DNA of 64,000 nt, from NCBI GenBank assembly GCA_045660445.1, contig JAZRDR010000006.1, positions 1,208 to 65,207 on the forward strand. The letters are read 5' to 3'. Position 1 is the first letter of the stretch, and each line of letters opens with the position of its first letter. The translations under genes were made by a program, and so were the position numbers. Positions 8,415 to 27,003 of the stretch are shown in pieces. The notes below the pieces were generated by a model, which saw only the letters and a program-made list of their open reading frames with translations, did no database searches and was not told where the DNA came from. This DNA comes from Candidatus Faeciplasma sp. Lineage in GTDB: Bacteria > Bacillota > Clostridia > Oscillospirales > Ruminococcaceae.

Positions 8415-8415
8415 T

Positions 8416-10053
8416 ATGACAACTACACAGACAATTCCTCAAAAGACGGTAAGAATTATTCCTGCAAAAGTAGATGTGCAAAAAGAAATAAGCAATACAT
8501 ATCGCCAACTTCGGGTTGCCGCATACTGCCGAGTATCGACAAAAGAAGAGGAACAGCTCAACAGTTACGATGTTCAGAAAAGATACTATACCGAGAAAAT
8601 AAATAGCGAACCTAAATGGTCTCTGGTAGGGATATTCGCCGATAAAGGCATAACCGGTACAAGTGTTAAAAAGCGTGATGAGTTCAATAAACTAATGCGT
8701 ATATGTAAACAGGGCAAGGTTGATATGATTATAACAAAATCGATCAGCAGATTTGCCCGAAACACAGTAGACTGCTTACAGTATGTACGAATGCTCAAAG
8801 ATATAGGCGTTGATGTTTACTTTGAAGAACAAGGAATTCATAGCACTCAACCAGGAGCAGAGTTTTACATTACAATATACGGTTCTATCGCTCAGAGCGA
8901 ATCAGAAAACATATCCGCAAATGTACGGTGGGGCAAGGCGCAAAGCGCAAAAGAAGGCAACGTTACATTTCACTACAGTAGATTCCTAGGTTATAGAAAA
9001 GGCTCGGACGGACAACCTGAAATAGTACCTGAACAGGCTGCTATAATAAAAAGAATATATGACAGTTTCTTATCCGGCGACAGTATGGCCGGCATAGCTG
9101 ATAGTCTTAATAAAGACGGCATTCCCACGGTAACAGGTAAAGGAAAATGGGAAAGAGGAACTATACAGTCCATTCTGACAAATGAAAAATATAAGGGTGA
9201 TGCGATACTTAACAAAACATATATCGTAGACTGTATCTCCAAGAAAGTGAAAATAAACAACGGAGAGCGCCCGAAATATTATGTAGAAAACAATCATCCT
9301 GCAATAATAGACTCGGTTACATTTGGAAAGGTTCAAGAAGAGCTTGCAAGAAGAAACAGCAAGCGGAAGGTTAAGCAAATAGGTACAACGACCGTAAGCG
9401 GAAAGTATTCAAGCAAGTATGCTCTAACGGAACTGCTCATATGCGGAGAGTGCGGTACCCCGTACAGAAGATGCACGTGGACAATAAACAGAGAGAAGAA
9501 AATAGTATGGCGATGCATAAGCCGATTAGATTACGGTAAAAAGTACTGCCATACTTCCCCAAGCATAGAAGAAGGCAAGTTACAGCAAGCGATTATGAGG
9601 GCAATAATGACAGTCGCTTCTCAGAATTCAGAAATATGGGATACACTAAAGCTTCACATAAGTATGGGGCTTAACGCGAATGGTAATGAAGACAACTTCC
9701 TTGATATCCAAGTGAGAATCGCAGAGATAGATTCCGAATTCGCTAAAATGCTAAGCGCCGTATCCACAGATACAGTAGATATTTTTGATGAAGCAAGGGC
9801 GACCGCTTTGATGCTTGAAAAGAATCAGCTCCAAAAACAACTTGATGAATACTTAGAACAAAGCAAAGAACGCGAATCCGCACAGTCAAGAGTGGATGAC
9901 ATATTCTCTGTACTGAAAGAGATAAGAAATCAGCCGTTAGAGTATGATGATAAGCTTGTGCGAAAACTGCTTGGATGCGTGGTTGTAGAGAGCAAGGAAC
10001 AAGTGAAAGTGGTGTTTAAAGGAGGGATGGAGGTTGAGGAGGAACTAATATAA
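8416..10053 (+). CDS. large serine recombinase
   Basis: 545 aa. AAYCRVSTKEEEQ, TKSISRFARN, recombinase domain, CGECG Zn-ribbon and coiled-coil tail. It starts 1 nt after the previous stop. Confidence 0.9.
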   Translation: MTTTQTIPQKTVRIIPAKVDVQKEISNTYRQLRVAAYCRVSTKEEEQLNSYDVQKRYYTEKINSEPKWSLVGIFADKGITGTSVKKRDEFNKLMRICKQGKVDMIITKSISRFARNTVDCLQYVRMLKDIGVDVYFEEQGIHSTQPGAEFYITIYGSIAQSESENISANVRWGKAQSAKEGNVTFHYSRFLGYRKGSDGQPEIVPEQAAIIKRIYDSFLSGDSMAGIADSLNKDGIPTVTGKGKWERGTIQSILTNEKYKGDAILNKTYIVDCISKKVKINNGERPKYYVENNHPAIIDSVTFGKVQEELARRNSKRKVKQIGTTTVSGKYSSKYALTELLICGECGTPYRRCTWTINREKKIVWRCISRLDYGKKYCHTSPSIEEGKLQQAIMRAIMTVASQNSEIWDTLKLHISMGLNANGNEDNFLDIQVRIAEIDSEFAKMLSAVSTDTVDIFDEARATALMLEKNQLQKQLDEYLEQSKERESAQSRVDDIFSVLKEIRNQPLEYDDKLVRKLLGCVVVESKEQVKVVFKGGMEVEEELI

Positions 10054-10438: not shown

Positions 10439-11506
10439 ATGAAAAAGCAAAACGTACTAAACTTAATTAAATATCATGTTGAAAAAAATGAAAACTCCTT
10501 TAGAAATGAAGCTATTAATATAGCTAGATACTTTGACAGTATCGGAGATGACCAACTGGCAGAGTATATTATGGGATTAATAGCAGAATCAAATATGTAT
10601 ACCCCACAAGGCAGCGATTTTGAAAGTGAATTCTTGAAGCAGATTGATACTCGGATAATGGATCCGCTGAATCTTCCAACAGATATTTCCGAAGATGTCA
10701 AAGGAATAATCAATGCAGTAAACCATAACATAGGCATCAATAAATTTTTGTTTGAAGGATTTCCCGGTAGCGGAAAAACCGAGGCGGCAAAGCATGTTGC
10801 GCGTTTGTTAGATAGAACTTTATTTTGCGTTGATTTTGATAATTTAATTGATAGCAAATTGGGTCAAACAAACAAAAACATTTCTCTGATCTTTAACGAA
10901 ATCAATATGATACCGCATGCCAATAAAGCGGTTGTTTTATTTGATGAGATTGATGTAATTGCTCTTGACAGAATAAATTCAAATGACGTCAGAGAAATGG
11001 GCCGTGTTACTTCAACAATATTAAGAGAGTTTGATAGATTAACGGACTTAAATAAAGAGATTGTAATCATAGCCACAACAAATCTTTATTCTAATTTTGA
11101 TAAAGCACTCATCAGACGTTTCGATGCAGTTATTAACTTTAACAGATACAGCAAAGAAGATTTGATCGAAGTAGCCGAATTTTATTTTTCTTCGTTTGTT
11201 AAGAATTTCAAAGGTGTTTCTAAAGATATTAGACTGTTTAGAAAGATTCTAACTGTTGCACCGGAACTTCCTTATCCCGGAGAACTAAAAAATATTATCA
11301 AAACTTCTTTAGCATTTAGTGATGTTAATTTAGAACATGATTATTTAAGACGACTTTATAATAATTTGATTGGCGAATTAGAAAAAACAGATATTACTCA
11401 ACTCTATGAAAAGGGATTCACCGTAAGAGAAATTGAAAAATTAAAAGGCGAATCCAAAAGCTCTGTTTCTCGAAAATTGAACAAGGAGGATGAATCGGAT
11501 GAATAA
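10439..11506 (+). CDS. ietA: AAA+ ATPase, IetA-like
   Basis: 355 aa. Walker A GFPGSGKT (aa 107-114, nt 10757-10780), Walker B VVLFDEID, sensor-1 ATTN and RRFD. C-terminal HTH-like GFTVREIEKLKGESKSSVSRKL. Overlaps the S8 protease gene by 17 nt. Confidence 0.75.
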   Translation: MKKQNVLNLIKYHVEKNENSFRNEAINIARYFDSIGDDQLAEYIMGLIAESNMYTPQGSDFESEFLKQIDTRIMDPLNLPTDISEDVKGIINAVNHNIGINKFLFEGFPGSGKTEAAKHVARLLDRTLFCVDFDNLIDSKLGQTNKNISLIFNEINMIPHANKAVVLFDEIDVIALDRINSNDVREMGRVTSTILREFDRLTDLNKEIVIIATTNLYSNFDKALIRRFDAVINFNRYSKEDLIEVAEFYFSSFVKNFKGVSKDIRLFRKILTVAPELPYPGELKNIIKTSLAFSDVNLEHDYLRRLYNNLIGELEKTDITQLYEKGFTVREIEKLKGESKSSVSRKLNKEDESDE

Positions 11507-13736
11507 TATGCTTGAGCTGAAGGGAAAGCGTTTTGTTCAGGCGGCAAAACGCCCTGGTTCAGGTGGAGCCGCTATGAATAGCAAATCCTTGGTTACAAAT
11601 GAGCATCTGCTCAAACTGACAGCAAAATTGCAACAAATAAAACAATTCTGGGAACAAGAGCAAAAACCATTTCACGGTGTTTTGATTAGTGTCCATTACA
11701 ACAAAATAGTTGCAAAGTCTAATCGTATTGCTGGATTGTTCAAAGGTGAAGATTCGAATTTGGCAATAGTTGGTGCAAAATTTAACAAAGAGAAGACCAA
11801 GCATATTATCACATATTTCTTGGATTCATACGATCTTGATACAACAATCAATTCGTTGCTGATAGCAAACGAAATTGTTCGTTCTCTATTCAAAGACGGG
11901 ATTACTAAAGCGGTATTTGATAACAGCAAGGCTTTGTTTAATAAAATCAATACCAAAATGCATCACATGTCAAAATCGGCATTTAGGCAAGTAATTGCGG
12001 ATGTTTCTTATATTGAAGACTTTGAAGTTGAAAGAGCGCCTCAACAATTCAAAGAAAGCATTATTACGCTTTATGATACCAAGATGGACACTCAGCTTCT
12101 GTTCAAAAATATAGGTATTGATATTCTGTCAAGCCGTATTCTGGACAACAGAACTGTTTTCTTAGACGAAAATCAAGCTAAAATACTATACGAGAAAGCT
12201 CCTTATCTTGTTGCTATGGCAACGGAAAACTTATTAGATCTTTCTCCGGAAGACTTTATAGGCGGTTATGACGATGGAATGATTCATATTCCAAGTCCGT
12301 CTATTGAGCCTACAATCGGCGTAATTGACACCTTATTTGATGAAAGGGTGTATTTCAACGAGTGGGTAGAATACTATGATATGGTCGATGATGCTATTCC
12401 CAAAACCTCTAGAGATTATCGTCATGGAACTGCGGTTTCATCAATAATTGTTGACGGACCTCGCTTGAATCCGTGGCTGAATGATGGCTGCGGAAGATTT
12501 CAAGTTCGTCATTTCGGTGTTGCGACTGCTTCACAGTTCTCTTCATTCACCATAATCAAACATATCAAAAGAATTATCGCAGAAAACAAAGATATAAAAG
12601 TCTGGAATATTTCTCTTGGCAGCGACAAGGAAGTGAATGACAATTTTATATCTGCAGAAGCCGCCATCCTTGATCAAATACAATATGAAAACGACGTGAT
12701 TTTTGTTGTTGCCGGCACTAATAAGCCTAATGATAGCGTTGTAAAAATCGGTTCTCCTGCGGATTCAATCAATAGTATGGTCGTAAACGCAGTCGCCAAA
12801 AGTGGTTTGTCGACAAGATACTCCAGAAAAGGGTTGGCTCTTTCGTTCTTTGCTAAACCCGATGTAAGTTATTACGGAGGTAGCGAGGAACAATACATTT
12901 GTGTTTGTGAGCCTTTGGGTGCTGCCAACGTTGCAGGAACCTCGTACGCTGCTCCTTGGATTGCCCGAAAATTAGCCTATCTTATCAATGTTTTGGGCTT
13001 CAATCGAGAAATTGCGAAAGCGATGATTATCGACTCGGCCCGAGCATGGAATGAGGCTCCGACACCCGAAGAAGTGGCTCTATACGGTCATGGCGTTGTA
13101 CCGATCAAGATTGAGGACATTGTTCAAACTAAAGACGATGAGATAAAGTTTGTTGTCACAGACATAAGTGAAAAATGGAACACCTATAACTATGATTTTC
13201 CCATTCCTATGCAAGATGATAAATACCCATATGTAGCAAGAGCTACTATGTGTTATTTCCCGATTTGTGATAGAACGCAGGGCGTTGATTATACAAACAC
13301 GGAATTGAATCTGCATTTTGGTAGAATCAAAGACGATGGAAAGTTATACGAAATCAATGATGACAAGCAGAACCCTGACGAAGATGTGGTCGGTGCAAGA
13401 AGCTATATTCTTGAGGGTGAAGCAAGAGAGAGATTCCGAAAATGGGATAATGTAAAATATATTTGCGAAAAGCCAACCAATGACAAGCACGCCAAAAAAT
13501 CTTACAAGAACAAGAACTGGGGCATGGAGATAAAAACCAACAATCGATTAGACCCCCAAGACGGAGTGGGGATACGGTTTGGCATTGTTGTCACATTGAA
13601 AGAAATCAATGGTGTAAACAGAATAGATGAATTCGTTAAAAACTGCCATCTTAACGGATGGTTGGTTAACACTATCGATATTCAGAATCGCATCGATATT
13701 CATGAGAAAATTAATGAAGAAGTCGTTTTCGATTGA
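11490..13736 (+). CDS. ietS: S8 (subtilisin-like) serine peptidase with unknown ~270-aa N-domain and ~200-aa C-domain, IetS-like
   Basis: 748 aa. Catalytic triad motifs IGVIDT (D280), YRHGTAVSS (H312) and AGTSYAAPW (S485). No signal peptide. Later Met starts (11499/11508) are possible. Confidence 0.75.
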   Translation: MNRMNNMLELKGKRFVQAAKRPGSGGAAMNSKSLVTNEHLLKLTAKLQQIKQFWEQEQKPFHGVLISVHYNKIVAKSNRIAGLFKGEDSNLAIVGAKFNKEKTKHIITYFLDSYDLDTTINSLLIANEIVRSLFKDGITKAVFDNSKALFNKINTKMHHMSKSAFRQVIADVSYIEDFEVERAPQQFKESIITLYDTKMDTQLLFKNIGIDILSSRILDNRTVFLDENQAKILYEKAPYLVAMATENLLDLSPEDFIGGYDDGMIHIPSPSIEPTIGVIDTLFDERVYFNEWVEYYDMVDDAIPKTSRDYRHGTAVSSIIVDGPRLNPWLNDGCGRFQVRHFGVATASQFSSFTIIKHIKRIIAENKDIKVWNISLGSDKEVNDNFISAEAAILDQIQYENDVIFVVAGTNKPNDSVVKIGSPADSINSMVVNAVAKSGLSTRYSRKGLALSFFAKPDVSYYGGSEEQYICVCEPLGAANVAGTSYAAPWIARKLAYLINVLGFNREIAKAMIIDSARAWNEAPTPEEVALYGHGVVPIKIEDIVQTKDDEIKFVVTDISEKWNTYNYDFPIPMQDDKYPYVARATMCYFPICDRTQGVDYTNTELNLHFGRIKDDGKLYEINDDKQNPDEDVVGARSYILEGEARERFRKWDNVKYICEKPTNDKHAKKSYKNKNWGMEIKTNNRLDPQDGVGIRFGIVVTLKEINGVNRIDEFVKNCHLNGWLVNTIDIQNRIDIHEKINEEVVFD

Positions 13737-14351: not shown

Positions 14352-15341
14352 CTAAGCCGTGTGACTTCCGCACAACTTTGAGACAATGGACTTACAATAA
14401 GTTTCAACTGTATGCATTTCATCAAAATACGATCCATCAATTGAACCTAAAAACACAATATCTTTTTGACTGCTATACGGAAAGGCAAAATAAATACGCT
14501 TGTTTTTAGAAATGCTGGTTTGATTTCTAAAAACATATAGATCGTTAATCACCAATGCACCAAGAATTCCCGTTTTCTTTCTTTTAATCAATTCTGCTTC
14601 TATATCTCTTCTCTGCAAAAAGCTCTCTATTGCTTCTCCAGAAATCGTTGGCAAGAGTTTGGCAAGGACTCTGTACATGTCGCAGTGGAGCTCCTCAATT
14701 TCATTTGCAGAATTTATAGTATTGAGAGAATTAATAAGTTGCCTACACAATTCATGACCTACATCAGCAAATTCCGTCCAATATAATTCTTTCTGTATCG
14801 GATCGGTTTCGTTCAAATACTTATTATAACGTGAAGACACATTGCGAATTTTCTTGTGAATCGGATAGGTGAAGTAAAAATAGGTCTGTAAAATGGTGTT
14901 GATTTCTGTTCTTTCGTTTGCCGCCCCAGCAAGATAGCTCAGCTTAATATACTTACGTCCGTCATCATTTTTAATTCTGTGCTGAAAAGCTTGCATACTC
15001 TCAATGTGCTCATTTTCATCAACCACTGTAAATAATGTCTTATTAAGCGCCTCTAGTTCATCCGACGAAACAATTTTAGAGTTAGCCTTAGATTGCTGAA
15101 CTATATACACTATCGTGCATACAAAAAATATTGCAGCACAAATTGCCCACGGAATTATGCTGGAAATCAAAACGCTTTTACCTAGCCAAACTTTCACCTT
15201 TTCTTCATCGAAGTAATACATCACCAGCCATTCAAAAATAGGTTGTACAATGAAGCCTAAAACAGTAAGCGCAAAGTACCATGGTTTATTTTGAAGAATT
15301 TTTCTCATACTGTCACTCCAACCACTTCTCATATTCGACAT
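14352..15341 (-). CDS. 2-TM membrane protein with ~240-aa unknown soluble domain
   Basis: 329 aa. Two N-terminal hydrophobic helices (WYFALTVLGFIVQPIFEWLVMYYF and LISSIIPWAICAAIFFVCTIVYIV). The rest has no motif I can name. Confidence 0.7.
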   Translation of the reverse strand: MSNMRSGWSDSMRKILQNKPWYFALTVLGFIVQPIFEWLVMYYFDEEKVKVWLGKSVLISSIIPWAICAAIFFVCTIVYIVQQSKANSKIVSSDELEALNKTLFTVVDENEHIESMQAFQHRIKNDDGRKYIKLSYLAGAANERTEINTILQTYFYFTYPIHKKIRNVSSRYNKYLNETDPIQKELYWTEFADVGHELCRQLINSLNTINSANEIEELHCDMYRVLAKLLPTISGEAIESFLQRRDIEAELIKRKKTGILGALVINDLYVFRNQTSISKNKRIYFAFPYSSQKDIVFLGSIDGSYFDEMHTVETYCKSIVSKLCGSHTA

Positions 15342-15399: not shown

Positions 15400-16125
15400 A
15401 ACCTTGTTTCCTAATTTTAACTTGCTGCAACCATGCTTGATGCTAGAATAATCAGTTTCTTTATTTACCGTTTTCTTGTATCCATTCTTTGCGTAAGGCC
15501 TTTGTTCGTTATAAAATAATACATACTTATCAGCCAATGTTTTGGATTCTTTTTTCAGAACGGTATTTTGTTAGGTATAGTTCTTCACGTTTATACTTGA
15601 AAGGAACGTTTCCATAACAGAATCATCTCTGGCATATGTATCTTGAAAAAGACTGTATTACACAAAGATATTCCAAATAGCTCCCAAATGCTTCGGAGAC
15701 ATACTGGTCGGCTCCATGTGAATGAAACATCAGACTTTTTGACGGTTTGCGTTTTTCATAAGCTATTCTGAAGGCAGCCTTTGTCAGCTGTATGCTGTTC
15801 TTTTGGTTGATTTTATATGCCACTACTACCTTTGCATACAAATCGGTAATGGCGCAGATATAGTAATTGATATTATTATATCGGAAGTATGTAAAGTAAA
15901 TTAAGTCGCAAGATTGTGCCACGGTTGTTTTTACTTCCAAATCTTGCGACTTTTTTTGTTATAGGCCTTGCTGTTTTTTAGGGTTTCTGGTGACGAGGTT
16001 TAACTCACCCCAAGTTTGCCGTTTAGCTTGATCGATTTTGCACTTCTCTTCTTTAGAGAGTTTCTCGTGGGAAATAGATTTGCTTAATATTGATTTGCAT
16101 TATTATAAACGCACATGTATTAAAA
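15400..16125 (-). pseudogene. IS3-family transposase relic (frameshifted, truncated)
   Basis: Track ORF 15623..15940 carries the rve core (ICAITDLYAKVVVAY...MFHSHGADQYVS...IQSFSR). Flanking frames give further IS3-like pieces (YNEQRPYAKNGYKK; SHEKLSKEEKCKIDQAK) interrupted by stops and frame changes. Confidence 0.75.
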
Positions 16126-16129
16126 TCAA

Positions 16130-19100
16130 TTAATGCACTCTAAACTCATCTAATAGAACAGCAGCGTTTTCAAACCTTAAACTGATAAGAGTTTCGAGAG
16201 TTTTTTCATATGCGATCGTCAATTCGGCATCTTGTTTTATTTTGTCACTAAATTTTAAATAAGCAAGAAGAATTAGGCGATTGAGTATCCATCTAGTATC
16301 CTCCAGATGCGATGCATTAAAGTAAGATGTTGTAAATTCTGTAACAGTAGTTGCTATGGAAGGCAAAATATTCGGAAGTAATTTCTCTAATTTCATTTTA
16401 TATACTGTTAGCATGAAATAATTAAAATTATACTTACCATATCTACCAAACATAGTGTTTAAAAACTGTATATCTGAGTAGGAATAGCTCGTAGTCACAT
16501 TGCTCCAGTCACCTTCAAATCCACGCACAGAGAGAATCAATGCGCGATACAGTTCTCGACGTACCCAATCTGCACAATTGATAGCATTAATCCTTTCTTC
16601 TATTGCAGAAAGTGTGATTTCACATTGCTTTCTGCGCAAAGGGGTCTTATATGCATCAACATAGCCAGGTAATAACGCTCCAAATACATCGAGATAGAAG
16701 TCAACGGCATCTCTAGAGAACTTTGTAAAATCAATATCGTCAAATAAAATGTTCAGTGTAAGTTCTGTATTATCAAATAATTCTTCGCCTAGATAATCTA
16801 TCACCATTCTGAATGTATATGTATCTAATCGTTCAACACGAGAATGATATGAATCTTTTGTGTTGAGAATAGTGATTATATTTCTCACAAGCGACTGTAC
16901 AATAGAATAATGAAACGGATTCTGAATGTTAATTCCACAATCAACAATACTACCAAGTGTATAGAGATCATAATCATCAGCAATGAACTCAGTCAAATTA
17001 TAGACTTCTTCAGAGTATAAATGTTTTTCAATGATTTGGTCTTTGCAGCTTACATAGCCCGGTTTGCCGGATTGTTGTATCATGTGATCTACCCTTCGGA
17101 ATTTAAAATCACTGTTATGAACAAAATCAAACGATTGTGTATCCGTATTATTCATAACGTAATTAAAACTAAATAACTGGTGTTGCATTTCATCTTTTGA
17201 AAGTGCGATAACAGTATTAATTATCGCCGTCTGTATGTTGGGTGTGACTTTTATAAAGCTTTTTGCAATACGCCGGAAGCTATAAATACGTCCATTAATT
17301 CCTCTATCCATAATTATTTGAAGGATCAAACGCTTAATTCTGTTCCTTACCTCCTGGCTTGCATTAGAATCTATCTGTCTAAAAAGAATATACAGCAAAC
17401 CGTCATCGAACAAAAAACTGCCATTATTAAAAATGTCTTCAATGCCATCTGCCCAAAAATTACAGTATGCATCTCTTCGTTTAGATTCAAGATCGGGCTT
17501 ATTTAGTGCATATGTAACCAAGAGCAAAAAATAGCCTGTATATGCAAAGGAATTCTCGGTAGCATCCAATGCAGTTTGAAACGCATCAAGATATGTGAGT
17601 ATTTCACTTTCTGAGTAATCCTCCGGGTTAACATTGTTAGTAAAATCGCTTACGATTTTTTGTATCTCCTTTTCCGGGGTTAAGATAGCAGAATGTGTGT
17701 CTACAATCTCCTTCGCTAAACCCGAAACTCTAGGAGTGATGGCCACAGTTTTGTCATCGACTTGTTCGATGTTGGGGTTTCTAAAATCCATTTGCTGTAT
17801 TTGCAAATGACTTTGTGCATGTTGTTCGTTGTTGGGATATAGCCCGTACAGATAATCTAATAACCGATGGCATGTTTTTTGTGTCCCTGCAATAAACTGC
17901 ATTTTGGCAACATACTCACGAAGGATATATTTAATACTAGCGTTCTCGGGGTACCGTTGTTTTAAATTGGGAACACCTACTATTTGCAGTATTTGCTCTT
18001 CAAGTTTTTGACTAATGGCACCAGGATTTAAATGCGAAAATCTTTCTATATCCCAAATAATAATCTCCATACATGTTGCTAAATCCAGTGCATATCCTGG
18101 TAGCTCTTTTTCAAACTGGCATCCAACATCCTCGATGATTGAAAGCATGGATATATTATTGGTCTTTTGGAATATTGTTGCTTTAATGCTATTTGCAAAT
18201 TCCGTGATGTCTATGTTTTGATGTATTCCGCTGTTGATAATGCGAAGAATCTTAGTTCTTAATAAATATACAATATCGCTAAGTAATGCAGGAAACCGAT
18301 ACTCATCAACCCCGGCAAACCACATATCACGGTTAGCCAATAGCTTCTTCTCTTCGTTTTTGTCCAACAATATTAACGTGACTTCTTTAATCTCTGTTGG
18401 GTGGTTTGTTGCAAAGTGCGAAATGCATTTGTTATTAAAACCAATTGCCCAGTACAAACCCTTCCAAAAATTTTGGTCAATCAGATTAGGGAAAAACCGA
18501 TAATCATCCGATGACTGGCTAGAGTGTTCGTAGTCTTCCGCAAGCCTATTCAAGCCATAATGATAGCAATTGGAGTCCAATCCATTTCCATAAGAAAAAG
18601 AATAATTGTTTAATTTGGTTGTCCAAAAAACATCTGCAATATTACACAATTCGTCAGGGAGATACTTCGCCAATTGCCAAGTTGTAAACTTTAATGTGTA
18701 CTCCAGCAATTCTTCCGCAACAGATTGTTTGTCACGTTCTTCAGACAAGAAAGCTTCTGTTTGCTGATTCCAAAACGAAACGATCCAGTCTTTAGAGAAT
18801 TCGGCCATCTGATATATGGGATATAAAAGCCGTGTCGCTATTTCCTTAATGTCGTGGCGATGAATATTTTGAATGTCTAACCCGATGGTTATAAAGTGCT
18901 GTAATATCTTGCTGGCTATGTTAGCAGTATAGGCCACCTTATTTGTACTCTTAGCGTAGTCGGAACACAATTTGATTATAGAATCCATGTTGATATCGGA
19001 CGTTGTGTATACGTTTTGCTCATAAATGATCTTAATAAGAGCGTCTCGTCCTTCGCCTATAGGGTGTAATAGAAGGCATGGTGCGGTATCGGTTCCCCAA

Positions 19101-20875
19101 ACTTCTGGGGAGAACGCATATAAGTTTGTGATATCAACGAATTCTTGAAGCTTATTGCTGGAGATAATACTATATGTTTTCTCTTCAAAAAATGGTGCAC
19201 AGAATCTGGATTTTGTGAGCCCTATTATAGTTTGCTGACTCCAATGGGTAGGTATCTTGGTGGTAGATATTAAATTATAAAGAAATTTCTCTCTATTTTC
19301 CTTTGACAGGATTTTATTAGCAATCCATATTTGATATCTTCTGTAGCTGCATCTACCAAACTTTTCAATGTGATTAAAGAACACATCATACTCCCCACGG
19401 CATGATATAAAGGCATTATCAAATTCTTTTTCGAAGCATATATCCTCAAAGATATCATATTTAAGGCGCACTCCATGTCCGTTTTCTATAAGAACACCTT
19501 CAGACACTAGTGCATTTAAAACTGCTTGATTAACGCTTTCTTTACTAACGCCCAAACTAAAGTTCTGTGCTCTGGCAAAGGTCAGATTCGTTACTTCTTG
19601 AGCAATTTCATTGAATGACAGCCTGTATTTAAGTGCTTTTTTTCTTAGGCATATGACATTTTCCCATATATACTCTCTGAGCGCATTTTCATCGGCTATG
19701 CTGGCGTAATCAGTTACATTACTGACTATTAAATTAATATAAAAGGGAATGGATATCAATGTACTATATGAATTGTCTTTGAGAAAAGCCTGAATAACGG
19801 GATACTTTTTAGCTATATGGTGTACTTCTTCTGCAGTTAAAGGTTCAATTAGAAACGGCATGACTGCATATTTTGAATCAATTTTAATAAATGACGTTTC
19901 ATCGCTACTTCTACAGCTGGTGATAATCTTTACGTTGGGATGTTCTTTTGCTAATTCATACAGTGATTGCAGCAAATCCAACTTGGTGCTGGGGGCATCT
20001 GAAATAAACTCTAAAGAATCAATAAAAAAGGTAATAGGTTTATCTTGCAAATAAAGCAAGGCATCCGCAATGCATAAATGCCAAATGTCATTTATGTCCG
20101 TTTCCTCGACAAATCTTTCAGCGCGAGCATATAATAGATATTGCTCATTCTCCACGACTTTTTTGCAAACTACCGATTTCCCACTGCCAGCCTCGCCACG
20201 AATGCTTATGAACTGTTGGTTAGCTTCTTTGATTTTCTTAATAACCGGTGTCCGATCTATTTCATATTCACCATTGATAAGACTTATAATGCTGTTTAAT
20301 CCGATCTCTTTACTATTATGAAACTGCTCGAGTAGCTTGCTTGATATTTCAGCTATTTTCGCGTCGTCTCCTTCTAATAATTCATATAGAGCTATTTGAA
20401 AATCCAATCTATTTTTTGCACGTGCTACGACATCTTGTGTCGTAATCAAATGATGAGCTTTTTCAAAATCAATGTTGCCAATTCTGTTTTTCCCAGTATA
20501 ATCTTTTACTCGATCAACACTGTCGTTATTTAAGACGAAAAAGAACACATTTTGCAGACTATCAAATCGCGGGTCTTTGCTGTCTCGGATTTTTTCTAGT
20601 GTAGATTTGATCTTACTAGACACATCTTGGACTGTACTTACCTGCACATAAACGGTACCATCCTCAGACTCAAGGTCAACATATGGGTAATTCGATCGTT
20701 TTTCATTTAAGTTATAGAATTTTTGACCAAACCAAAGCCCACAAACATTAATGGCAAACAATTCGAATAAAGTCGCAGTATCAAACAATCCGTTTTTGTT
20801 GGCTAACGTAATCTTTGCTTCATACGCAGACATATATTCATTGATATAGTCCATTCTTTCTGCCGAATTCATCAT
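16130..20875 (-). CDS. giant SMEK-like N-domain + P-loop (STAND/NACHT-like) NTPase + ~1,250-aa tail
   Basis: Uninterrupted 4.7-kb ORF. Walker A GEAGSGKS at nt 20174-20197 (aa 231-238 in track numbering) and Walker B-like ITFFIDSLEF (aa 285-294). The N-terminus reads GLFDTATLFELFAINVCGLWFG...NYPYVDLESEDGTVYVQVSTVQDVSSKIKSTLEKI. I moved the start to ATG 20875 (MMNSAER), which lies behind AAGGATGG. The track start is 20887. Confidence 0.85.
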   Translation of the reverse strand: MMNSAERMDYINEYMSAYEAKITLANKNGLFDTATLFELFAINVCGLWFGQKFYNLNEKRSNYPYVDLESEDGTVYVQVSTVQDVSSKIKSTLEKIRDSKDPRFDSLQNVFFFVLNNDSVDRVKDYTGKNRIGNIDFEKAHHLITTQDVVARAKNRLDFQIALYELLEGDDAKIAEISSKLLEQFHNSKEIGLNSIISLINGEYEIDRTPVIKKIKEANQQFISIRGEAGSGKSVVCKKVVENEQYLLYARAERFVEETDINDIWHLCIADALLYLQDKPITFFIDSLEFISDAPSTKLDLLQSLYELAKEHPNVKIITSCRSSDETSFIKIDSKYAVMPFLIEPLTAEEVHHIAKKYPVIQAFLKDNSYSTLISIPFYINLIVSNVTDYASIADENALREYIWENVICLRKKALKYRLSFNEIAQEVTNLTFARAQNFSLGVSKESVNQAVLNALVSEGVLIENGHGVRLKYDIFEDICFEKEFDNAFISCRGEYDVFFNHIEKFGRCSYRRYQIWIANKILSKENREKFLYNLISTTKIPTHWSQQTIIGLTKSRFCAPFFEEKTYSIISSNKLQEFVDITNLYAFSPEVWGTDTAPCLLLHPIGEGRDALIKIIYEQNVYTTSDINMDSIIKLCSDYAKSTNKVAYTANIASKILQHFITIGLDIQNIHRHDIKEIATRLLYPIYQMAEFSKDWIVSFWNQQTEAFLSEERDKQSVAEELLEYTLKFTTWQLAKYLPDELCNIADVFWTTKLNNYSFSYGNGLDSNCYHYGLNRLAEDYEHSSQSSDDYRFFPNLIDQNFWKGLYWAIGFNNKCISHFATNHPTEIKEVTLILLDKNEEKKLLANRDMWFAGVDEYRFPALLSDIVYLLRTKILRIINSGIHQNIDITEFANSIKATIFQKTNNISMLSIIEDVGCQFEKELPGYALDLATCMEIIIWDIERFSHLNPGAISQKLEEQILQIVGVPNLKQRYPENASIKYILREYVAKMQFIAGTQKTCHRLLDYLYGLYPNNEQHAQSHLQIQQMDFRNPNIEQVDDKTVAITPRVSGLAKEIVDTHSAILTPEKEIQKIVSDFTNNVNPEDYSESEILTYLDAFQTALDATENSFAYTGYFLLLVTYALNKPDLESKRRDAYCNFWADGIEDIFNNGSFLFDDGLLYILFRQIDSNASQEVRNRIKRLILQIIMDRGINGRIYSFRRIAKSFIKVTPNIQTAIINTVIALSKDEMQHQLFSFNYVMNNTDTQSFDFVHNSDFKFRRVDHMIQQSGKPGYVSCKDQIIEKHLYSEEVYNLTEFIADDYDLYTLGSIVDCGINIQNPFHYSIVQSLVRNIITILNTKDSYHSRVERLDTYTFRMVIDYLGEELFDNTELTLNILFDDIDFTKFSRDAVDFYLDVFGALLPGYVDAYKTPLRRKQCEITLSAIEERINAINCADWVRRELYRALILSVRGFEGDWSNVTTSYSYSDIQFLNTMFGRYGKYNFNYFMLTVYKMKLEKLLPNILPSIATTVTEFTTSYFNASHLEDTRWILNRLILLAYLKFSDKIKQDAELTIAYEKTLETLISLRFENAAVLLDEFRVH

Positions 20876-20895
20876 AATCAACACCATCCTTTATC

Positions 20896-20924
20896 TTTAT
20901 AAATGATTTTAATCACAGATTCAA
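20896..20924 (-). promoter_or_regulatory. sigma-A-type promoter for the giant NTPase gene
   Basis: On the minus strand: TTGAAT, 17-nt spacer, TATAAA, about 20 nt upstream of the start region. Confidence 0.5.
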
Positions 20925-21399
20925 TTCTTTTTTCTTCCGATAGAAGGTATCTAGCTTCATCAATAATGTCGGACTTGCAGCCTTTGTATTTGCACTCGGC
21001 ATTTGCAATCTTGATCCCCTCGCACTGACAATCAATGATGCTTCACGTTCCAGTTCTGCCAAATCTCCGAAAACAGTGAGCATAAATCAGTAGTTAGTAT
21101 GCATCGATGTTCTTCTACAAGCTGATAAACTCTACTTCCTTTTCTGTCAAGCAGAAAATCACAGACAACTGATCTCTGGTGTTTCTTGCAATCCAGGAGA
21201 CGCTCTCTACGATTACAATGTCACCTGCACGAACGAAAGTTATCAAAGTTTTAGAAGCATTGCGATCAACATTCTTGTCATTGCCATATCGATAAATTTC
21301 CTACAGTCTTTTGTTCTTCTATCATCGTTAACTGGCCAACTTCGTTCTGCTCAGCGGTGGAACAGCGGACACATTAGTCTTTTGAGAGATAACACCCAT
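20900..21399 (-). pseudogene. small serine recombinase (resolvase/invertase) pseudogene
   Basis: Minus-strand frames give RCSTAEQNEVGQL, GNDKNVDRNASKTLITFVRAGDIVIVESVSWIARNTRDQL and GIKIANAECKYKGCKS. These are resolvase motifs in the right order but broken by at least 2 frameshifts and several stops. Confidence 0.65.
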
Positions 21400-21650
21400 T
21401 CAAATCTGATATTATTATACTAAATACAACGGCATATTTCAACAAACTATACATTTATTTTGCAATATTCAAAATGCGAGATGTGATTCATTTTTTTGCA
21501 CAAGCTTATGTGTTTGAGAGCTCTATTGAAAACTTCTTTTATAAATCAATGAACTTTTCAATAAATCCTTGATTTTTTAAGTTTATTGATGTATAATTCC
21601 TATTGAAAGGTTATATGATAAATCAAGAAAGTTTTCAATGGGAGGTCGCT

Positions 21651-22952
21651 ATGGAAATCAAACGTGATCGGTATTTACAGCAACTCATCTCATATATGTG
21701 GGATGGGCAGGTAAAAGTTATCACCGGTATTCGCAGATGTGGGAAATCATATTTGCTTGGCACTTTGTTCCGCAAGTATTTGATCAGTGAAGGTGTCAAA
21801 GAAGAACAAATTCTTTCATTCGCGTTGGACTTGACTAAAGATATAAAATACCGCAATCCTCTTGCACTTGCTGAATATGTAAGAGGAATCGTCGAGAATA
21901 AAGACGAGCAGTTTTATCTGTTTGTGGATGAAATTCAGTTATCCGACGAAATTCCCAACCCCTATAATAGTGACGGCAAAAAGATCACTTTCTACGATGC
22001 ACTAAACGATCTTCGCTCGTTATCCAACTTGGATATCTATGTAACCGGAAGCAACTCCAAAATGCTTTCTTCCGATATACTGACTGAGTTCAGAGGCCGC
22101 AGTGACGAAGTTCGTGTGCATCCACTTAATTTTTCTGAATACTATTCAGCCATTGGCGGTGATAAATACGATGCATTTGACAGCTACGCTTTCTTTGGCG
22201 GTATGCCGCTTGTACTCTCCCGTCCAAATGATGCCGCTAAGATGGCTTACCTGCAATCACTATTTGCTGAAACTTATTTGAAGGATATCATTGAGCGAAA
22301 GAAGATTAGACGAAAGGATATTCTCGATGCCGTTCTTGATCTGCTCTGCTCTTCTGTCGGATCTCTCACCAATCCCACCAATGTGGCCAATAGTTTGAAT
22401 ACCAAGCAAAAGCTTAGCGGCGAAAATACCGTAGCGCAAAATACCGTGAAAAGTTATATGGACTACTTGACAGATGCATTCCTTTTCAGTGAATGCAAGC
22501 GTTGGGATGTTAAAGGAAAGAGCTATTTCGATTATCCCAACAAGTATTATTGCGAGGATATAGGACTGAGAAATGCACGTATCGGATTCCGTCAGCAGGA
22601 AATGACTCACATCATGGAAAACATCATTTACAACGAGCTTATAATTCGTGGCTGTGCAGTTGATGTCGGTATTGTATACGGTAATGGTACCGATAAAAAA
22701 GGTCGTACTGTCCAAGTACCGCGAGAAATTGATTTCGTTGCGACCATTGGTGGAAAGCGAGTATATATCCAGTCTGCATATGCACTTCCAGATGATGCAA
22801 AAGCTGAAATCGAGAACCGACCTTTCGGTTTGACCGGTGACTCTTTCCCGAAAATTATCGTCCGTCATGACATTCGTAAGAGGTGGTATGATGATAACGG
22901 TGTATTGAATATCGGAATCATCGATTTCCTCTTGGATCAAACCGTTGTTTGA
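21651..22952 (+). CDS. AAA+ ATPase with DUF4143 C-terminal domain
   Basis: Start moved to ATG 21651 (MEIKRDRYLQQL), 6 nt after GGGAGG. Walker A GIRRCGKS and Walker B LFVDEIQ. The fold pattern is typical of the AAA_14/DUF4143 family. Confidence 0.85.
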   Translation: MEIKRDRYLQQLISYMWDGQVKVITGIRRCGKSYLLGTLFRKYLISEGVKEEQILSFALDLTKDIKYRNPLALAEYVRGIVENKDEQFYLFVDEIQLSDEIPNPYNSDGKKITFYDALNDLRSLSNLDIYVTGSNSKMLSSDILTEFRGRSDEVRVHPLNFSEYYSAIGGDKYDAFDSYAFFGGMPLVLSRPNDAAKMAYLQSLFAETYLKDIIERKKIRRKDILDAVLDLLCSSVGSLTNPTNVANSLNTKQKLSGENTVAQNTVKSYMDYLTDAFLFSECKRWDVKGKSYFDYPNKYYCEDIGLRNARIGFRQQEMTHIMENIIYNELIIRGCAVDVGIVYGNGTDKKGRTVQVPREIDFVATIGGKRVYIQSAYALPDDAKAEIENRPFGLTGDSFPKIIVRHDIRKRWYDDNGVLNIGIIDFLLDQTVV

Positions 22953-23290: not shown

Positions 23291-24331
23291 ATGATATCAT
23301 ATTCAAGAGTAGGCAACACATTTAAATTCAACGATGATAATGAGACGTTTTCATTCACAATACCAAAGCATCCCAAGCAGACCGATGAACCTCATATTAG
23401 CCCTTTGCGAGCTATGGATTTTTTAGATTCAGGTCCCTCATCGTCAAAAAGCGGGAGATACATCGCTTTAGCTAAGTTTGACAAGATATATGTTTTTGAC
23501 CGACAGACAAATTCGCTCACTGAATCGAAATTTAAGATGAAATCTTATATTTTCGAAAGCCCAAGGTTTGATGAGCAGGATCGCATATATTTTATCTGCG
23601 GGAATTCAATTTTTCGCTGGGTAATTGGAGAAAAAGAAGCTAAGACCCTTTACAATCTTTACAGAGCTACTCATGGTCCTTCCGACATCGGAACAAGTCC
23701 AAGCGGAAGATACGTGTCATTCTTAAAATATCGCAATGACTCGCAGTATCTCTATGTATATGATACGGTAACTGAGGGGTGTCGCGATTACAAAACCTCC
23801 GTGTACCACTATGCTTGGCTGGACGAAACTCACATCGTATATACAAAATCCGAAGGAATCATAGTTTTAGACATTGAAACCGGAAAAAGCAAGCATATCA
23901 TTAAAGATCTCGCAGCTCTTGCTAAAAGAAGTAGCCAAGAAGACGCAGACTTAATTAGAGAATTAATCGTTGACCCGAAGTTTTTATCCAAAACTTTTTC
24001 TATTTTGGGTGTGCGCGACGGAAGAATTTGGTTTTCTCTTTGGGCTTGCGATTTTAAAAAGAGTGTTAAAATTTCCGTTCCGATTCTCAATATGATAACT
24101 AAAAATCATTTAGAGCACTTGGGCATTTGGAGCGTTAATTCCGACGGTTCAGATGCACAATATGCCTTTGAAGCTCCTGACAAAATCAGAGGCAGATTTG
24201 TCGCTCTGACTGACGATAAAAGAATCGCATTTTCCAGCAAACACACCTTGACAATTTATGACCGTGAATCAAAAATAAAGCTTGAAGAAGACTGGAGCAT
24301 CGTTCGTTGCTATGAAGCTTCAAGCCGATAA
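23291..24331 (+). CDS. cytoplasmic protein with TolB/DPP-IV-like beta-propeller repeats, unknown function
   Basis: 346 aa with no signal peptide. Repeated motifs of the type SPSGRYVSFLKYRNDSQYLYVYD and SGRYIALAKFDKIYVFD. Confidence 0.65.
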   Translation: MISYSRVGNTFKFNDDNETFSFTIPKHPKQTDEPHISPLRAMDFLDSGPSSSKSGRYIALAKFDKIYVFDRQTNSLTESKFKMKSYIFESPRFDEQDRIYFICGNSIFRWVIGEKEAKTLYNLYRATHGPSDIGTSPSGRYVSFLKYRNDSQYLYVYDTVTEGCRDYKTSVYHYAWLDETHIVYTKSEGIIVLDIETGKSKHIIKDLAALAKRSSQEDADLIRELIVDPKFLSKTFSILGVRDGRIWFSLWACDFKKSVKISVPILNMITKNHLEHLGIWSVNSDGSDAQYAFEAPDKIRGRFVALTDDKRIAFSSKHTLTIYDRESKIKLEEDWSIVRCYEASSR

Positions 24332-24566: not shown

Positions 24567-26201
24567 TTAATCATCGCGTTCCTTCTCGCTCTTCAAAACC
24601 TTGCCGGTCTCGGCATCGATCTCGTATTCGTAATCATATCCGCCTGCCGAGAACTCGACATCGTAATGATCCTTTTCAAAGATGCCTTCTGCACCGTCAA
24701 ACTCGCATTCAAGACCTCTTGCATCGGAAGCGCTTACGCCTGCATGCTCAAGTGCGGCAGCATTTGCGGCATCCTTGCCGATAAATTCAGCATTCTGCGA
24801 GGAAGAGGGCTTATCGTTGTTTTCGAATACGTTTTCTATTCCGTCGAAGATGTTGTCATCGTCAAACTTCTTGGAATGTCTTACAACTGCACCGGTCTTT
24901 GCATTGATCTCATAATCATAGTCGTATTGTCCTACCTCGAAGTCGATCTCGTAAACCGCCAAGCCGTCTTCGTGGTCGAACTCGCACTCAAATTCTCTTA
25001 CGTCGCTATCGTTAACTCCTGCGTGTGCAACAGCAGCGGCTCTTGCCTCTTCATAGGTGATATAAGCGGTGGATTCAGTTTTGTTGCTATCAGGCTTGGA
25101 GTTGCCGTTTTGCTCGGTGCTGCTGCCCTGCTGAGCATTTTCGTTTGTAGAGGACTGAGCGTTATTATTATTGTTATTATTGTTATTATTGTTATTATCG
25201 TTATTGTACTTATAATAATCATCGTCGCGCTCGCGAACGTTGTTTATAACACTGCCATCTGTTGCGTTTACGTCGTAATCATACTCGTAACCGTTTGCAT
25301 GGAACTCGATCTCATAAACCATTGTGCCGCGTTCATAGTCAAGCTCGCATTCATAACCGCGAATGTCAGCCTCTGTAACACCTGCATGATCAAGTGCCGC
25401 CTGCTTTGCAACCTCTGCTCCGATATATTTCTTATCGCTGGCAGAACCTGTAGAGGTTACGTTTTCAAGGGTGGTACCGTTTGAGGTAGAGATAAGATTA
25501 AGCTCGTTGATTGAAAGCTTTGCCAAATCCTCGAAGGTATAGTGGGTGTTCTGAGAAGTGATCTGTCTTATAAGCTGTGCCTTGCCTGCGGTGATGCCAT
25601 ATTGCTGGGCAAGAGTGTCAAGCTCGGTGTCGTGATTAACTGTCTGGCTTAAAACAGAGCCGCTAAAGCTATCGGTATTCAACAACTTGTCGATCTCTTG
25701 CGCAAGTCTTGCCTGAAGCTCTTCGTTCTTTGCAAAGTCGTCGCCGTCAACACTTATAAGGATCGAGTTTGCAAGGTCGTTTAAATAACCTTCTCTTAAC
25801 ATCGAGCCGATAAGTGCGTTGATAACCACGTCGATGTCGCTTCCTTTAAAGTCCATCTCGCCGATGACCTTAACGCCATCGTCGTTGAGAGGGATAACTT
25901 CCAAAACTCTTTCGTTTCTGTTTACTTTTATTTCAATGCTGGGGTTAACATCAAGTGATACAACTGATGCAACCGAGTTGTTAGAGCTGACAGTTGTAAT
26001 TCCAACGCCCAAGCCCAAGATCAGTACGATAGCAGCCGCAACAGCAACCGCTCTTTTTGCCCAATGAGGTCTTCTTTCAATCATCATAATGCTTTGTCCT
26101 TTCATATTCTCGCAATCGCGAAGAACCGTATCAAGGACGTTTGGGGTGGCATTTTTGAACGCTTTGTTGATTTTTCTTTCTAAATCGTTATTATAAGTCA
26201 T
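24567..26201 (-). CDS. anti-sigma factor with one TM segment and three PepSY domains
   Basis: 544 aa. N-terminal anti-sigma segment, TM helix (AVAVAAAIVLILGLGVGITTV) and three repeats of the type AALDHAGVTEADIRGYECELDYERGTMVYEIEF. Its start overlaps the stop of the sigma gene. Confidence 0.8.
   Translation of the reverse strand: MTYNNDLERKINKAFKNATPNVLDTVLRDCENMKGQSIMMIERRPHWAKRAVAVAAAIVLILGLGVGITTVSSNNSVASVVSLDVNPSIEIKVNRNERVLEVIPLNDDGVKVIGEMDFKGSDIDVVINALIGSMLREGYLNDLANSILISVDGDDFAKNEELQARLAQEIDKLLNTDSFSGSVLSQTVNHDTELDTLAQQYGITAGKAQLIRQITSQNTHYTFEDLAKLSINELNLISTSNGTTLENVTSTGSASDKKYIGAEVAKQAALDHAGVTEADIRGYECELDYERGTMVYEIEFHANGYEYDYDVNATDGSVINNVRERDDDYYKYNNDNNNNNNNNNNNNAQSSTNENAQQGSSTEQNGNSKPDSNKTESTAYITYEEARAAAVAHAGVNDSDVREFECEFDHEDGLAVYEIDFEVGQYDYDYEINAKTGAVVRHSKKFDDDNIFDGIENVFENNDKPSSSQNAEFIGKDAANAAALEHAGVSASDARGLECEFDGAEGIFEKDHYDVEFSAGGYDYEYEIDAETGKVLKSEKERDD
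25161..25206. repeat. 9-bp microsatellite (GTTATTATT)n encoding a poly-Asn tract
   Basis: gttattatt att gttattatt gttattatt gttattatc gttattg. On the minus strand this encodes the 13-residue Asn run (NNDN13 in context) between PepSY repeats. Confidence 0.8.
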
Positions 26202-26778
26202 TGCTCGGTTCTCCTTTCTCTAAATGTGCCCTTAACTTCTTAATTGCGCGATTATATTTTGAAAGAACTGTCGCAAGTGCCATGTCCATGTGAGATGCTA
26301 TCTCTCTGTGCTTAAAGCCTGCCACTGCATGAAGCAGAACTATCTGCCTTTCGTCGTCGTTTAAAACTGTCATGCATTGCTCTATAATAACCTTGTCGTT
26401 AACTGTCATTTCGTGGCAGTCGGAAATATAGTTCTGCCAATCCTCCTCGGGAATGTCCGAGGTTTTGTTTCTCTCTCTTATCTTTTGCAGGCAGAGGTTT
26501 TTGGTGATCGTAAGTATCCAGGCCATCGGTTTTCCAAAGGAACGGTAGTTTTGAGCGTTAGCATGGATATTAACGAAACAGTCGTGCAATACATCTTCGG
26601 CATCGTGCGAGTTTTTCAAAATAGACAGGGCGTAACCGTATACAGCCGCGCTTGCATTACGGTAGAGATCGGAAAGTGCCTCCTTGTTGCCATTGGCTAT
26701 ACAAGCTATATATCTTTCCAAGGCTTCTTCGCTTCCCATATCCATGATTTTCATTGTTGACGTCAAACAGATAATCAT
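26191..26778 (-). CDS. ECF-type sigma-70 family RNA polymerase sigma factor
   Basis: Region 2 (DAEDVLHDCFVNI) and region 4 (QIVLLHAVAGFKHREIASHMDMALATVLSKYNRAIKKLR). I chose the start at ATG 26778, behind AAAGGGG. The track start is 26820. Confidence 0.85.
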   Translation of the reverse strand: MIICLTSTMKIMDMGSEEALERYIACIANGNKEALSDLYRNASAAVYGYALSILKNSHDAEDVLHDCFVNIHANAQNYRSFGKPMAWILTITKNLCLQKIRERNKTSDIPEEDWQNYISDCHEMTVNDKVIIEQCMTVLNDDERQIVLLHAVAGFKHREIASHMDMALATVLSKYNRAIKKLRAHLEKGEPSNDL

Positions 26779-27003
26779 GTTTCTCGCCCCTTTCATCTTA
26801 TTAATACACGAACCGTTCATTTTATTGCATCAATTTAAGAATAATTCTTAAAAATATTAAATCATATTTAATTTGTATTGTCAATCTATTTTAATCGCAA
26901 GATTACTAATTTCTAACTGATGTTAAAATGCAGGACAACATAGTAACAAAAAGAGCACATATATTTTCGCGATCTATATGCATCTTTTTAATCAAGGTAA
27001 AAT

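Follow-up and report, generated by a model that had tools for sequence, protein, structure and literature searches.

What is the large protein encoded on the minus strand at positions 16130 to 20875 of a 64,000-nucleotide stretch of DNA from Candidatus Faeciplasma sp. (GenBank assembly GCA_045660445.1, contig JAZRDR010000006.1, positions 1,208 to 65,207; hereafter, the window)? A first reading of the letters alone (the original prediction) had described an N-terminal effector domain, a signal transduction ATPase with numerous domains (STAND) and a long C-terminal sensor, and had proposed an antiphage protein resembling Avs and NOD-like receptor (NLR) proteins that fitted no named family and might represent a new clade or system. 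Here, the architecture was supported by SMEK_N domain scores, conserved motifs, and AlphaFold2 (AF2) models, and an antiphage role is the best reading of the predicted function, given the homology to Avs4 and the defence context. The claim of novelty was contradicted by structural matches to Escherichia coli Avs4 (EcAvs4; PDB 8DGF), by a profile alignment with Avs4-type proteins, and by two relatives that PADLOC calls Avs4. On sequence and model evidence, the window protein is very probably an antiviral STAND of the Avs4 group whose effector is of nuclease type. With somewhat less confidence, although still as a probable conclusion, we take the gene to encode a divergent, mainly clostridial bacterial NLR-like member of that group that needs no partner gene and would work by the mechanism proposed below. 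Residues are numbered from the start codon at 20875, which gives values 4 lower than those of the original prediction (K233 here is K237 there).

Structural and profile evidence for kinship with Avs4

Structure modelling followed by Foldseek searches, as suggested in the original prediction, led to EcAvs4 for both halves of the protein. Two AF2 models, each built from alignments of 120 sequences, were compared with the PDB. For the model of residues 1 to 620 (pLDDT 87.6, pTM 0.84), the top match was 8dgf_A, which is Avs4 in complex with the PhiV-1 portal (E 3.5e-19), and the next match was at 8e-7. Further matches to this model (NLRC4, NLRP9, EfAvs5, SAMD9, NLRP3, Orc1/Cdc6, and CED-4) had E values from 1e-6 to 1e-4, and the match to SeAvs3 (8dgc) was weak (E 4.3e-5). 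For the model of residues 600 to 1581 (pLDDT 89.1, pTM 0.76), the top match was 8dgf_B (E 9.1e-17, TMq 0.60, 1088 columns), with a runner-up at E 8.9e-7 and a TM score of 0.14; the others were generic solenoids (karyopherins, SF3b, and FANCI) at E ~1e-6 or weaker and TM scores of at most 0.23. EcAvs4 was the best PDB match of both halves by more than 10 orders of magnitude in E value. Since 8DGF was the outstanding PDB match of each model, both halves point to the same protein. The affinity is specifically to Avs4, and the structures of Avs7 to Avs21 were absent from the top 50 matches of either model.

A bridge to Avs4 was also found at the sequence level. A tblastn search against plasmids gave a single match, the 1655-residue protein WP_044236412.1 of plasmid pHALHY01 from Haliscomenobacter hydrossis (Bacteroidota). 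This protein matched 8dgf_A at E 3.5e-71 over residues 282 to 1650 and the PADLOC Avs4 model at E 5.4e-157, and BLASTP aligned it with the window protein at 21% identity over 811 residues (E 2.7e-28). The homology covers the NOD (nucleotide-binding oligomerization domain) and the sensor; the effector of WP_044236412.1 is not SMEK and has its matches in the N-terminal parts of three PADLOC models, Avs2, LmuA, and DRT UG9. When the family alignment (A1) was compared by hhalign with an alignment of 17 Avs4-group proteins (A4), the probability was 100% and the E value was 3.2e-61 over 1333 columns, reaching from just before the P-loop to the C terminus. The scans against PADLOC and 8dgf_A covered the lead protein of A4, P0148, which matched PADLOC Avs4 at E 5.4e-157 and 8dgf_A at E 3.5e-71; the other 16 are homologues of P0148 with 21 to 87% identity. 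Inside the family, the proteins of loci L042 and L077, with 35% (residues 202 to 1581) and 32% (residues 103 to 1581) identity to the window protein, passed the PADLOC Avs4 model (E 1.3e-42 and 7e-33), and those of L046 and L037 did not. The NOD and sensor of the window protein are homologous to those of Avs4 by profile, via these Avs4 intermediates. A confident match to a named defence family, the outcome that the original prediction had set against its own view, was therefore obtained through structure and profile, whereas direct Pfam and PADLOC scans missed the protein; the PADLOC scan returned no defence model beyond the SMEK-type N terminus.

EcAvs4 (E. coli, PDB 8DGF; Gao et al. 2022) and the window protein have the same layout: an N-terminal effector of Mrr-type nuclease fold, a STAND NOD, and a large helical sensor. 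The chain sequence of 8dgf_A has 1587 residues, against 1581 in the window protein, and both proteins are single-gene systems in defence islands. They differ in sequence (14 to 18% identity, and 14% over the sensor), in the effector, which here belongs to the SMEK family (D...Q-x-S...K) with no detectable sequence match to the EcAvs4 N terminus, and in their hosts, which are mainly Clostridia, Bacilli, and Acholeplasma-type bacteria for the present family and Proteobacteria for EcAvs4. The mechanism of Avs4 consists of portal sensing, tetramer formation, and activation of the Mrr nuclease, and 8DGF is described as "EcAvs4-Mrr-portal" (PMC11897194; bioRxiv 10.64898/2026.08.25.746987). Avs3-Cap4, Avs7, and Avs11 follow the same logic, with an N-terminal nuclease that a STAND switch turns on when a core phage protein is recognized, and Avs11 senses portals, as Avs4 does (Lee et al. 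2026, PMC13581612).

The STAND module

The nucleotide-binding domain spans residues 196 to 345 (19841..20290, minus strand) and was recognized from invariant residues, Foldseek matches, and subthreshold Pfam matches. Its Walker A motif, GEAGSGKS (G227-S234), lies at nucleotides 20174-20197, where the original prediction had placed it, and the Walker B motif FFIDSLEF (D286, E289; nucleotides 20006-20035), which had been described as Walker B-like, follows about 50 residues later; in 120 homologues, both motifs are invariant or nearly so. A sensor-1-like TSCR motif (T319-R322; nucleotides 19910-19921) was recognized by conservation among the homologues. Position by position, G227, G230, G232, K233, S234, E289, S320, C321, and R322 are invariant in these sequences, and D286 and T319 are nearly so. 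We take TSCR (T319-R322) and SPFY (P377) to sit where STAND proteins have sensor 1 and a GxP-type motif, respectively.

In the AF2 model of residues 1 to 620, a five-stranded P-loop domain is followed by a helical domain and a winged helix. The helical and winged-helix domains of the NOD cover residues 346 to 482 (19430..19840, minus strand), as delimited by AF2 secondary structure and hhalign. After the winged helix, the NOD ends in the conserved motif RLKYDIFEDICFE (19430-19470, residues ~470 to 482), which hhalign aligned with the MHD-like AHDIFEDWAL of Avs4. Walker A, Walker B, the sensor-1 arginine, and the winged helix of a STAND core are all present, as judged from conservation and the AF2 model.

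Pfam scores for this module were low. The nSTAND_NTPase5 model (PF25199) scored 21.1 against a gathering threshold of 34, NB-ARC scored 15.3 against 23.5, and NACHT scored 12.1 against 26.7; all of the Pfam STAND models concerned (nSTAND5, NPHP3_N, AAA_16, NB-ARC, and NACHT) remained subthreshold, and most touched the P-loop only. The scan of Pfam and NCBIfam that the original prediction had proposed thus had a divided outcome, with SMEK above its cut-offs and NACHT, NB-ARC, and the other STAND models below theirs. A literature search for nSTAND5 returned unrelated plant papers only. We also weighed, and rejected, a MalT-like or other regulatory STAND, as the protein has no DNA-binding output domain and its context is one of defence.

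The SMEK effector domain

Residues 1 to 156 (20408..20875, minus strand) form a SMEK domain. The original prediction had named this domain without a search, and the name was borne out: SMEK_N of Pfam (PF21941) scored 97.2 bits against a cut-off of 27 over residues 14 to 156 of the open reading frame (ORF), and SMEK_N of NCBIfam (NF033859) scored 53.7 bits against 30. Searching PDB sequences with the family profile gave a single solved match, chain 26bh_D (E 2.4e-7), which is the "Mrr domain from Kordia jejudonensis Mrr-APAZ pAgo". E38, D67, Q78, and K88 of SMEK are invariant in the 120 homologues, and the D, Q, and K also occur in the aligned Kordia Mrr domain. In the AF2 model, the core runs alpha-beta-beta-beta-alpha-beta, the order expected for a PD-(D/E)xK fold. 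Taken together, the Pfam, NCBIfam, PDB, and AF2 results identify SMEK as a predicted Mrr-like effector domain of PD-(D/E)xK nuclease type, with putative catalytic competence. A long linker helix of 39 residues (157 to 195; 20291..20407, minus strand) stands between effector and NTPase in the AF2 model.

SMEK has been treated as an Mrr-like nuclease effector in the APAZ fusions of short prokaryotic Argonaute (pAgo) systems and in LmuA, the effector of Lamassu (PMC10810196; bioRxiv 10.1101/2023.06.08.544223; 10.1101/2025.04.02.646746). A passage of PMC10810196, citing its reference 19, reports DNA cleavage by a SMEK-APAZ/pAgo complex. Our literature search found no link between SMEK and Avs; the sole paper with both words, a Lamassu preprint, leaves them unlinked.

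The Kordia jejudonensis Mrr-APAZ partner of short pAgo (PDB 26bh) and the window protein carry the same domain family over the N-terminal 160 residues, and in both the SMEK domain serves as the effector module of an immune sensor. Unlike the Kordia protein, the window protein has no APAZ region, and its activation would come from a STAND oligomer instead of the guide-directed target binding of short pAgo. At E <= 1, the sole PADLOC match of the window protein was the Argonaute-associated model Aga_REase-PNTD1-PNTD2 (E 6.6e-16), which was matched by the first ~160 residues at model positions 1-153 of 463. The scan of flanking ORFs, which covered about 0.3-10 kb and 21.6-29.6 kb, gave no Argonaute or PIWI match. 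A SMEK-APAZ/short pAgo system was rejected on two grounds, the missing APAZ region and the lack of a PIWI match among the scanned neighbours.

The sensor region and exchange of the N-terminal domain

The C-terminal sensor (residues 483 to 1581, ~1,100 residues; 16133..19429, minus strand) is mostly alpha-helical, was delineated by AF2, Foldseek, and hhalign, and is by both fold and profile a homologue of the Avs4 sensor that binds the portal. It diverges fastest within the family, with a mean pairwise identity of 44% compared with 59% for SMEK and 61% for the nucleotide-binding domain. The motifs P-x-G-x-G-R/W and FW...Y/FGL are shared with the Avs4 group in the hhalign alignment. When homologues were sought with the sensor region alone, every full-length match listed had this sensor from about residue 600 to the C terminus, as in the window protein.

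At the other end of the protein, the N-terminal module has been exchanged in at least 14 homologues (L029, L036, L037, L039, L042, L043, L044, L046, L047, L063, L068, L073, L079, and L080), in which SMEK is replaced by a helical domain of ~130 residues and the linker helix segment (residues 157 to 195), NOD, and sensor are kept. The alternative domain, exemplified by L042:9482-9991, begins MDLVxAIGLLSSxVTLEEAGRSW. It had no Pfam match and no meaningful match in a PDB sequence search (best E 0.075), and a specific search near these variants found no conserved partner gene. The domain could be an undescribed effector or adaptor. Swapping of the N-terminal module and a fast-diverging sensor are traits of immune receptors.

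Family and distribution

The search for homologous proteins gave 1239 matches. The best 120 of these were nearly all full length, at 1569 to 1617 residues (one of 1321 residues), were 40 to 83% identical to the window protein, and were for the most part from metagenomes of gut and anaerobic origin. The few named homologues (Defluviitalea, Ruminiclostridium, and Lactonifactor) are each called "SMEK domain-containing protein" at NCBI. A scan of one genome per species gave 86 loci, mostly in Clostridia, Bacilli, and Acholeplasma-type bacteria, plus one case each under the labels Cetobacterium, Fibrobacteraceae, and Prevotellaceae. One contig, CAVGNR010000003.1 (L077), is binned as "Escherichia coli"; given the distribution of the family, it may be mis-binned.

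Proposed mechanism

By analogy with EcAvs4, the protein would be an autoinhibited monomer in the uninfected cell. During infection, the sensor would bind a conserved phage structural protein, by homology most likely the portal. A portal protein as the specific trigger is plausible by this analogy, and we hold it with a little less than even confidence; with 14% identity in the sensor, the trigger is the least secure part of the proposal. Binding would free the NOD, which would then bind ATP through K233 and probably D286/E289 and assemble into a tetramer. Assembly would pair the SMEK nuclease domains into active dimers, and these would degrade DNA indiscriminately, so that the cell would be killed or arrested before phage release (abortive infection).

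The gene, its start codon and the upstream resolvase

The Avs4-like coding sequence occupies 16130..20875 on the minus strand and encodes 1581 residues from a conserved ATGATG to the stop codon at 16130-16132. The single uninterrupted ORF of ~4.7 kb claimed in the original prediction was recovered at 16130..20887 (minus strand; 1585 codons), with its start corrected to 20875. The mechanical ORF start at 20887 lies 12 nt upstream of the conserved ATGATG, which has AAAGGATGGTG before it. The upstream ATG is not in frame with the gene in relatives; a 2-nt difference brings it into frame in the window only. The conservation of ATGATG, the frame of the upstream ATG in relatives, and the length of the database protein P0001 (100% identical to the window protein, 1581 residues) all indicate that 20875 is the true start. 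The ORF lies in DNA with a GC content of 35-37%.

The gene had been credited with a promoter of its own, TTGAAT-17-TATAAA (20896..20924, minus strand). The letters are there as described, and the evidence for a promoter is poor for three reasons: in relatives, TTGAAT (-35) falls within the final codons of a resolvase gene that lies upstream (E-L-N-L-stop); TATAAA (-10) is not conserved in them; and the region is not enriched in promoter-like matches over chance expectation (31 against 25.9). The consensus scan did not list this site, and it is probably not a conserved promoter. A better promoter-like sequence, TTGAAA-17-TATAAT (21414..21442, minus strand; 11/12 matches), stands upstream of a resolvase relic, and L084 has its equivalent in the corresponding place; judged by sequence, the site in the window is likely the promoter of an ancestral module of resolvase and Avs4.

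The relic is a small serine resolvase pseudogene (20947..21370, minus strand), in which tblastn revealed in-frame stops and a frame change. In the close relatives L082, L083, and L084 (79-80% identical), an intact serine resolvase of 186 residues (L082:351-911, L083:23-583, and L084:9398-9958) lies on the same strand, 42 nt upstream of the Avs4-like gene. The window shares homologous DNA with these three loci only from ~21477 to ~16127; this stretch covers the resolvase and the Avs4-like gene and ends at the stop codon. The two genes thus form a module of ~5.35 kb in the close relatives. A search of the module ends in the window and in L084 gave no convincing direct or inverted terminal repeats.

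Genomic context in the window and in homologous loci

The neighbours named in the original prediction, an IetAS-like pair, IS3 and resolvase relics, and an AAA+/DUF4143 gene, were all recovered by the scans as the types described. IetA (AAA ATPase, E 1.2e-36) and IetS (S8 subtilase, E 3.1e-63) were identified by PADLOC as overlapping genes at 10439-13736 on the plus strand and apparently make up a complete IetAS defence system. To their left, two complete large serine recombinases (535 and 545 residues) lie in tandem at 5956-10053 on the plus strand, with a 284-residue ORF between them that carries a Recombinase domain and a ZZ-type zinc finger only. The GC content is 33-39% at 10-22 kb and 43-45% beyond 28 kb, and the recombinases stand at the edge of the low-GC stretch. 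This position of the tandem serine recombinases suggests that an integrative element carries the defence genes.

Downstream of the Avs4-like gene and on the same strand is a 329-residue ORF (14352-15341, minus) that matched nothing in Pfam or PADLOC. Between the two genes lies an IS3-type rve relic (15623-15940). The 329-residue ORF was not among the recurrent neighbour families of the homologues, a statement that rests on those families and not on a direct homologue search in the loci. Divergent from the resolvase and Avs4 module is an AAA_14/DUF4143 gene (21603-22952, plus), which belongs to the PADLOC candidate defence family PDC-S01 (E 9.6e-104). It is followed within the island by a 346-residue ORF (23291-24331, plus) with no Pfam or PADLOC match and then by an RsgI-like anti-sigma factor and its sigma factor (24567-26820, minus). 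At the left edge of the window, an agr-like quorum-sensing set includes a LytTR response regulator (271-990, minus), an HTH_3 regulator (1037-1435, minus), and AgrB (1798-2379, plus).

For the neighbourhood analysis, 80 of the 86 species-level loci were kept. No conserved partner gene was found in them, and the largest cluster of neighbours occurred in 13 loci at varying positions. The Avs4-like gene is thereby supported as a single-gene unit. Among the 140 nearest neighbours, PADLOC (E <= 1e-8) recognized AriA (6), type III restriction enzymes (5), AbiLi (5), mad2 (5), and several PDC candidates, and Pfam recognized ResIII (9), SWI2_SNF2 (7), phage integrase (7), AAA_21 (6), and TnpV (5). Comparison of homologue neighbourhoods, which had been suggested as a check for enrichment near defence genes, thus revealed defence and mobile genes in variable contexts; as plain counts in these loci, the numbers provide qualitative support for a location of the family in defence islands or mobile elements.

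The bridging protein of H. hydrossis is also in a defence context, adjoining a nucleotidyltransferase and SLATT pair. On pHALHY01 (L081:2634-10101), a nucleotidyltransferase gene, a SLATT gene, and a hypothetical gene lie on the same strand, with overlapping ends, directly upstream of this Avs4. The set could be a CBASS-like or other defence operon that adjoins or is coupled with Avs4.

Alternative readings

Several observations weigh against placing the protein in the Avs4 group. The PADLOC Avs4 model (PDLC02169) fails to match it even at E <= 1. L042 and L077 pass this model, whereas L046, L037, and the window protein fail, so that the family straddles the detection limit; this miss also accounts for the missing name of the window protein. 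When PDB sequences were searched, 8DGF was not reached from the family profile, the NTPase region alone, or the single sequence, in the first two cases even at E <= 10. Identity to Avs4 is 14-21% only, and ligand specificity may have changed as a result. Exhaustive HMMER searching with the sensor region alone gave 266 representative proteins among 1.84 billion. At the end of the NOD, within RLKYDIFEDICFE, the conserved histidine of Avs4 (HDIFEDW) is replaced by a tyrosine (KYDIFED; Y473) that is nearly invariant in the family, and control by the nucleotide state may for this reason differ from that in Avs4. In the effector, strand beta-3 of SMEK carries Q-V-S, and the conserved lysine, K88, sits in the helix that follows. 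The beta-3 motif of Mrr is Q-x-K. Because of this arrangement, the nuclease competence of SMEK is a property that we infer.

The divergence of the sensor invites the view that the protein is the same Avs4-descended nuclease-STAND with a sensor retargeted to a non-portal phage protein or a non-protein cue, and hence a functionally separate Avs family. The 14% identity to EcAvs4 over the sensor, its rank as the fastest-evolving part of the protein, and the 266 representatives alone, of which the full-length ones listed share one architecture, are consistent with this view. It also draws on the catalogue of Lee et al. (2026, PMC13581612), in which some sensor clusters span several STAND clades and others are clade specific. 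Since the unrelated sensors of Avs4 and Avs11 both detect portals (PMC13581612), sensor fold and target are loosely coupled. Nevertheless, the sensor model reached a TM score of 0.60 to EcAvs4 over ~1,080 columns, against at most 0.23 for all other PDB solenoids, and the profile alignment spans the whole sensor, with the motifs P-x-G-x-G and FW...YGL in common. Avs4 homologues from distant taxa reportedly all responded to portals, which also counts against retargeting. We regard it as unlikely. Much further from the evidence is the original view of an undescribed STAND/NLR-like family unrelated to any named defence family, which we find scarcely credible. It would explain why PADLOC defence models match the SMEK domain only, why the Pfam STAND models all stay below their gathering thresholds, why the NCBI name is just "SMEK domain-containing protein", and why SMEK and Avs meet in the literature only in the Lamassu paper, unlinked. 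However, it is opposed by the hhalign result with Avs4-type proteins (100%, E 3.2e-61), by EcAvs4 as the outstanding structural match of both halves, and by the PADLOC calls for L042 and L077; convergent likeness to Avs4 is implausible for a profile alignment of 1333 columns. A catalogue of 589 STAND clades was assembled from NCBI clustered nr with Mrr-effector seeds (Lee et al. 2026, PMC13581612), and because of this source and these seeds the family is probably already in it.

The resolvase raises a different question, namely, whether the protein mainly serves a mobile module of resolvase and STAND, in addiction or in exclusion of plasmids and mobile elements, or whether SMEK is a non-catalytic DNA-binding module. 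The ~5.35-kb unit with a small serine resolvase in close relatives, whose common DNA ends at the stop codon, fits the former idea, as do the large serine recombinases of the island and the IetAS nearby. IetAS acts against plasmids. However, most of the 80 loci have no resolvase and adjoin restriction or abortive-infection genes instead, and the homology is to a receptor with a phage portal as its ligand. A non-catalytic SMEK would agree with the absence of a lysine at the canonical Q-x-K position, but the putative active-site residues are invariant, and DNA cleavage by the SMEK-APAZ/pAgo complex is mentioned in PMC10810196 (citing its reference 19). We consider either form of this explanation very unlikely, and an Avs4-group antiviral receptor remains the reading that we prefer.

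Implications

The Avs4-like protein is no new kind of system and no new class of mechanism. What it exposes is an annotation gap: the family is present in 86 species-representative genomes under the name "SMEK domain-containing protein", yet it is of Avs4 type by structure and profile. The Avs4 scaffold is thereby extended to anaerobic Bacillota, where it is paired with the SMEK nuclease family of short-Argonaute and Lamassu systems. The use of SMEK in Argonaute, Lamassu, and Avs illustrates how effector modules are common to several immune systems.

A bolder view of the clostridial SMEK-Avs4 lineage would combine an Avs4 scaffold whose sensor has drifted to another trigger, a cassette of resolvase and receptor, and an alternative N-terminal domain that is a new effector or adaptor. 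We hold this view to be doubtful. If true, any one of sensor drift, cassette mobility, or a new N-terminal domain would make the lineage a distinct functional type of Avs rather than another Avs4. The family offers a test of whether portal specificity survives at ~15% sensor identity.

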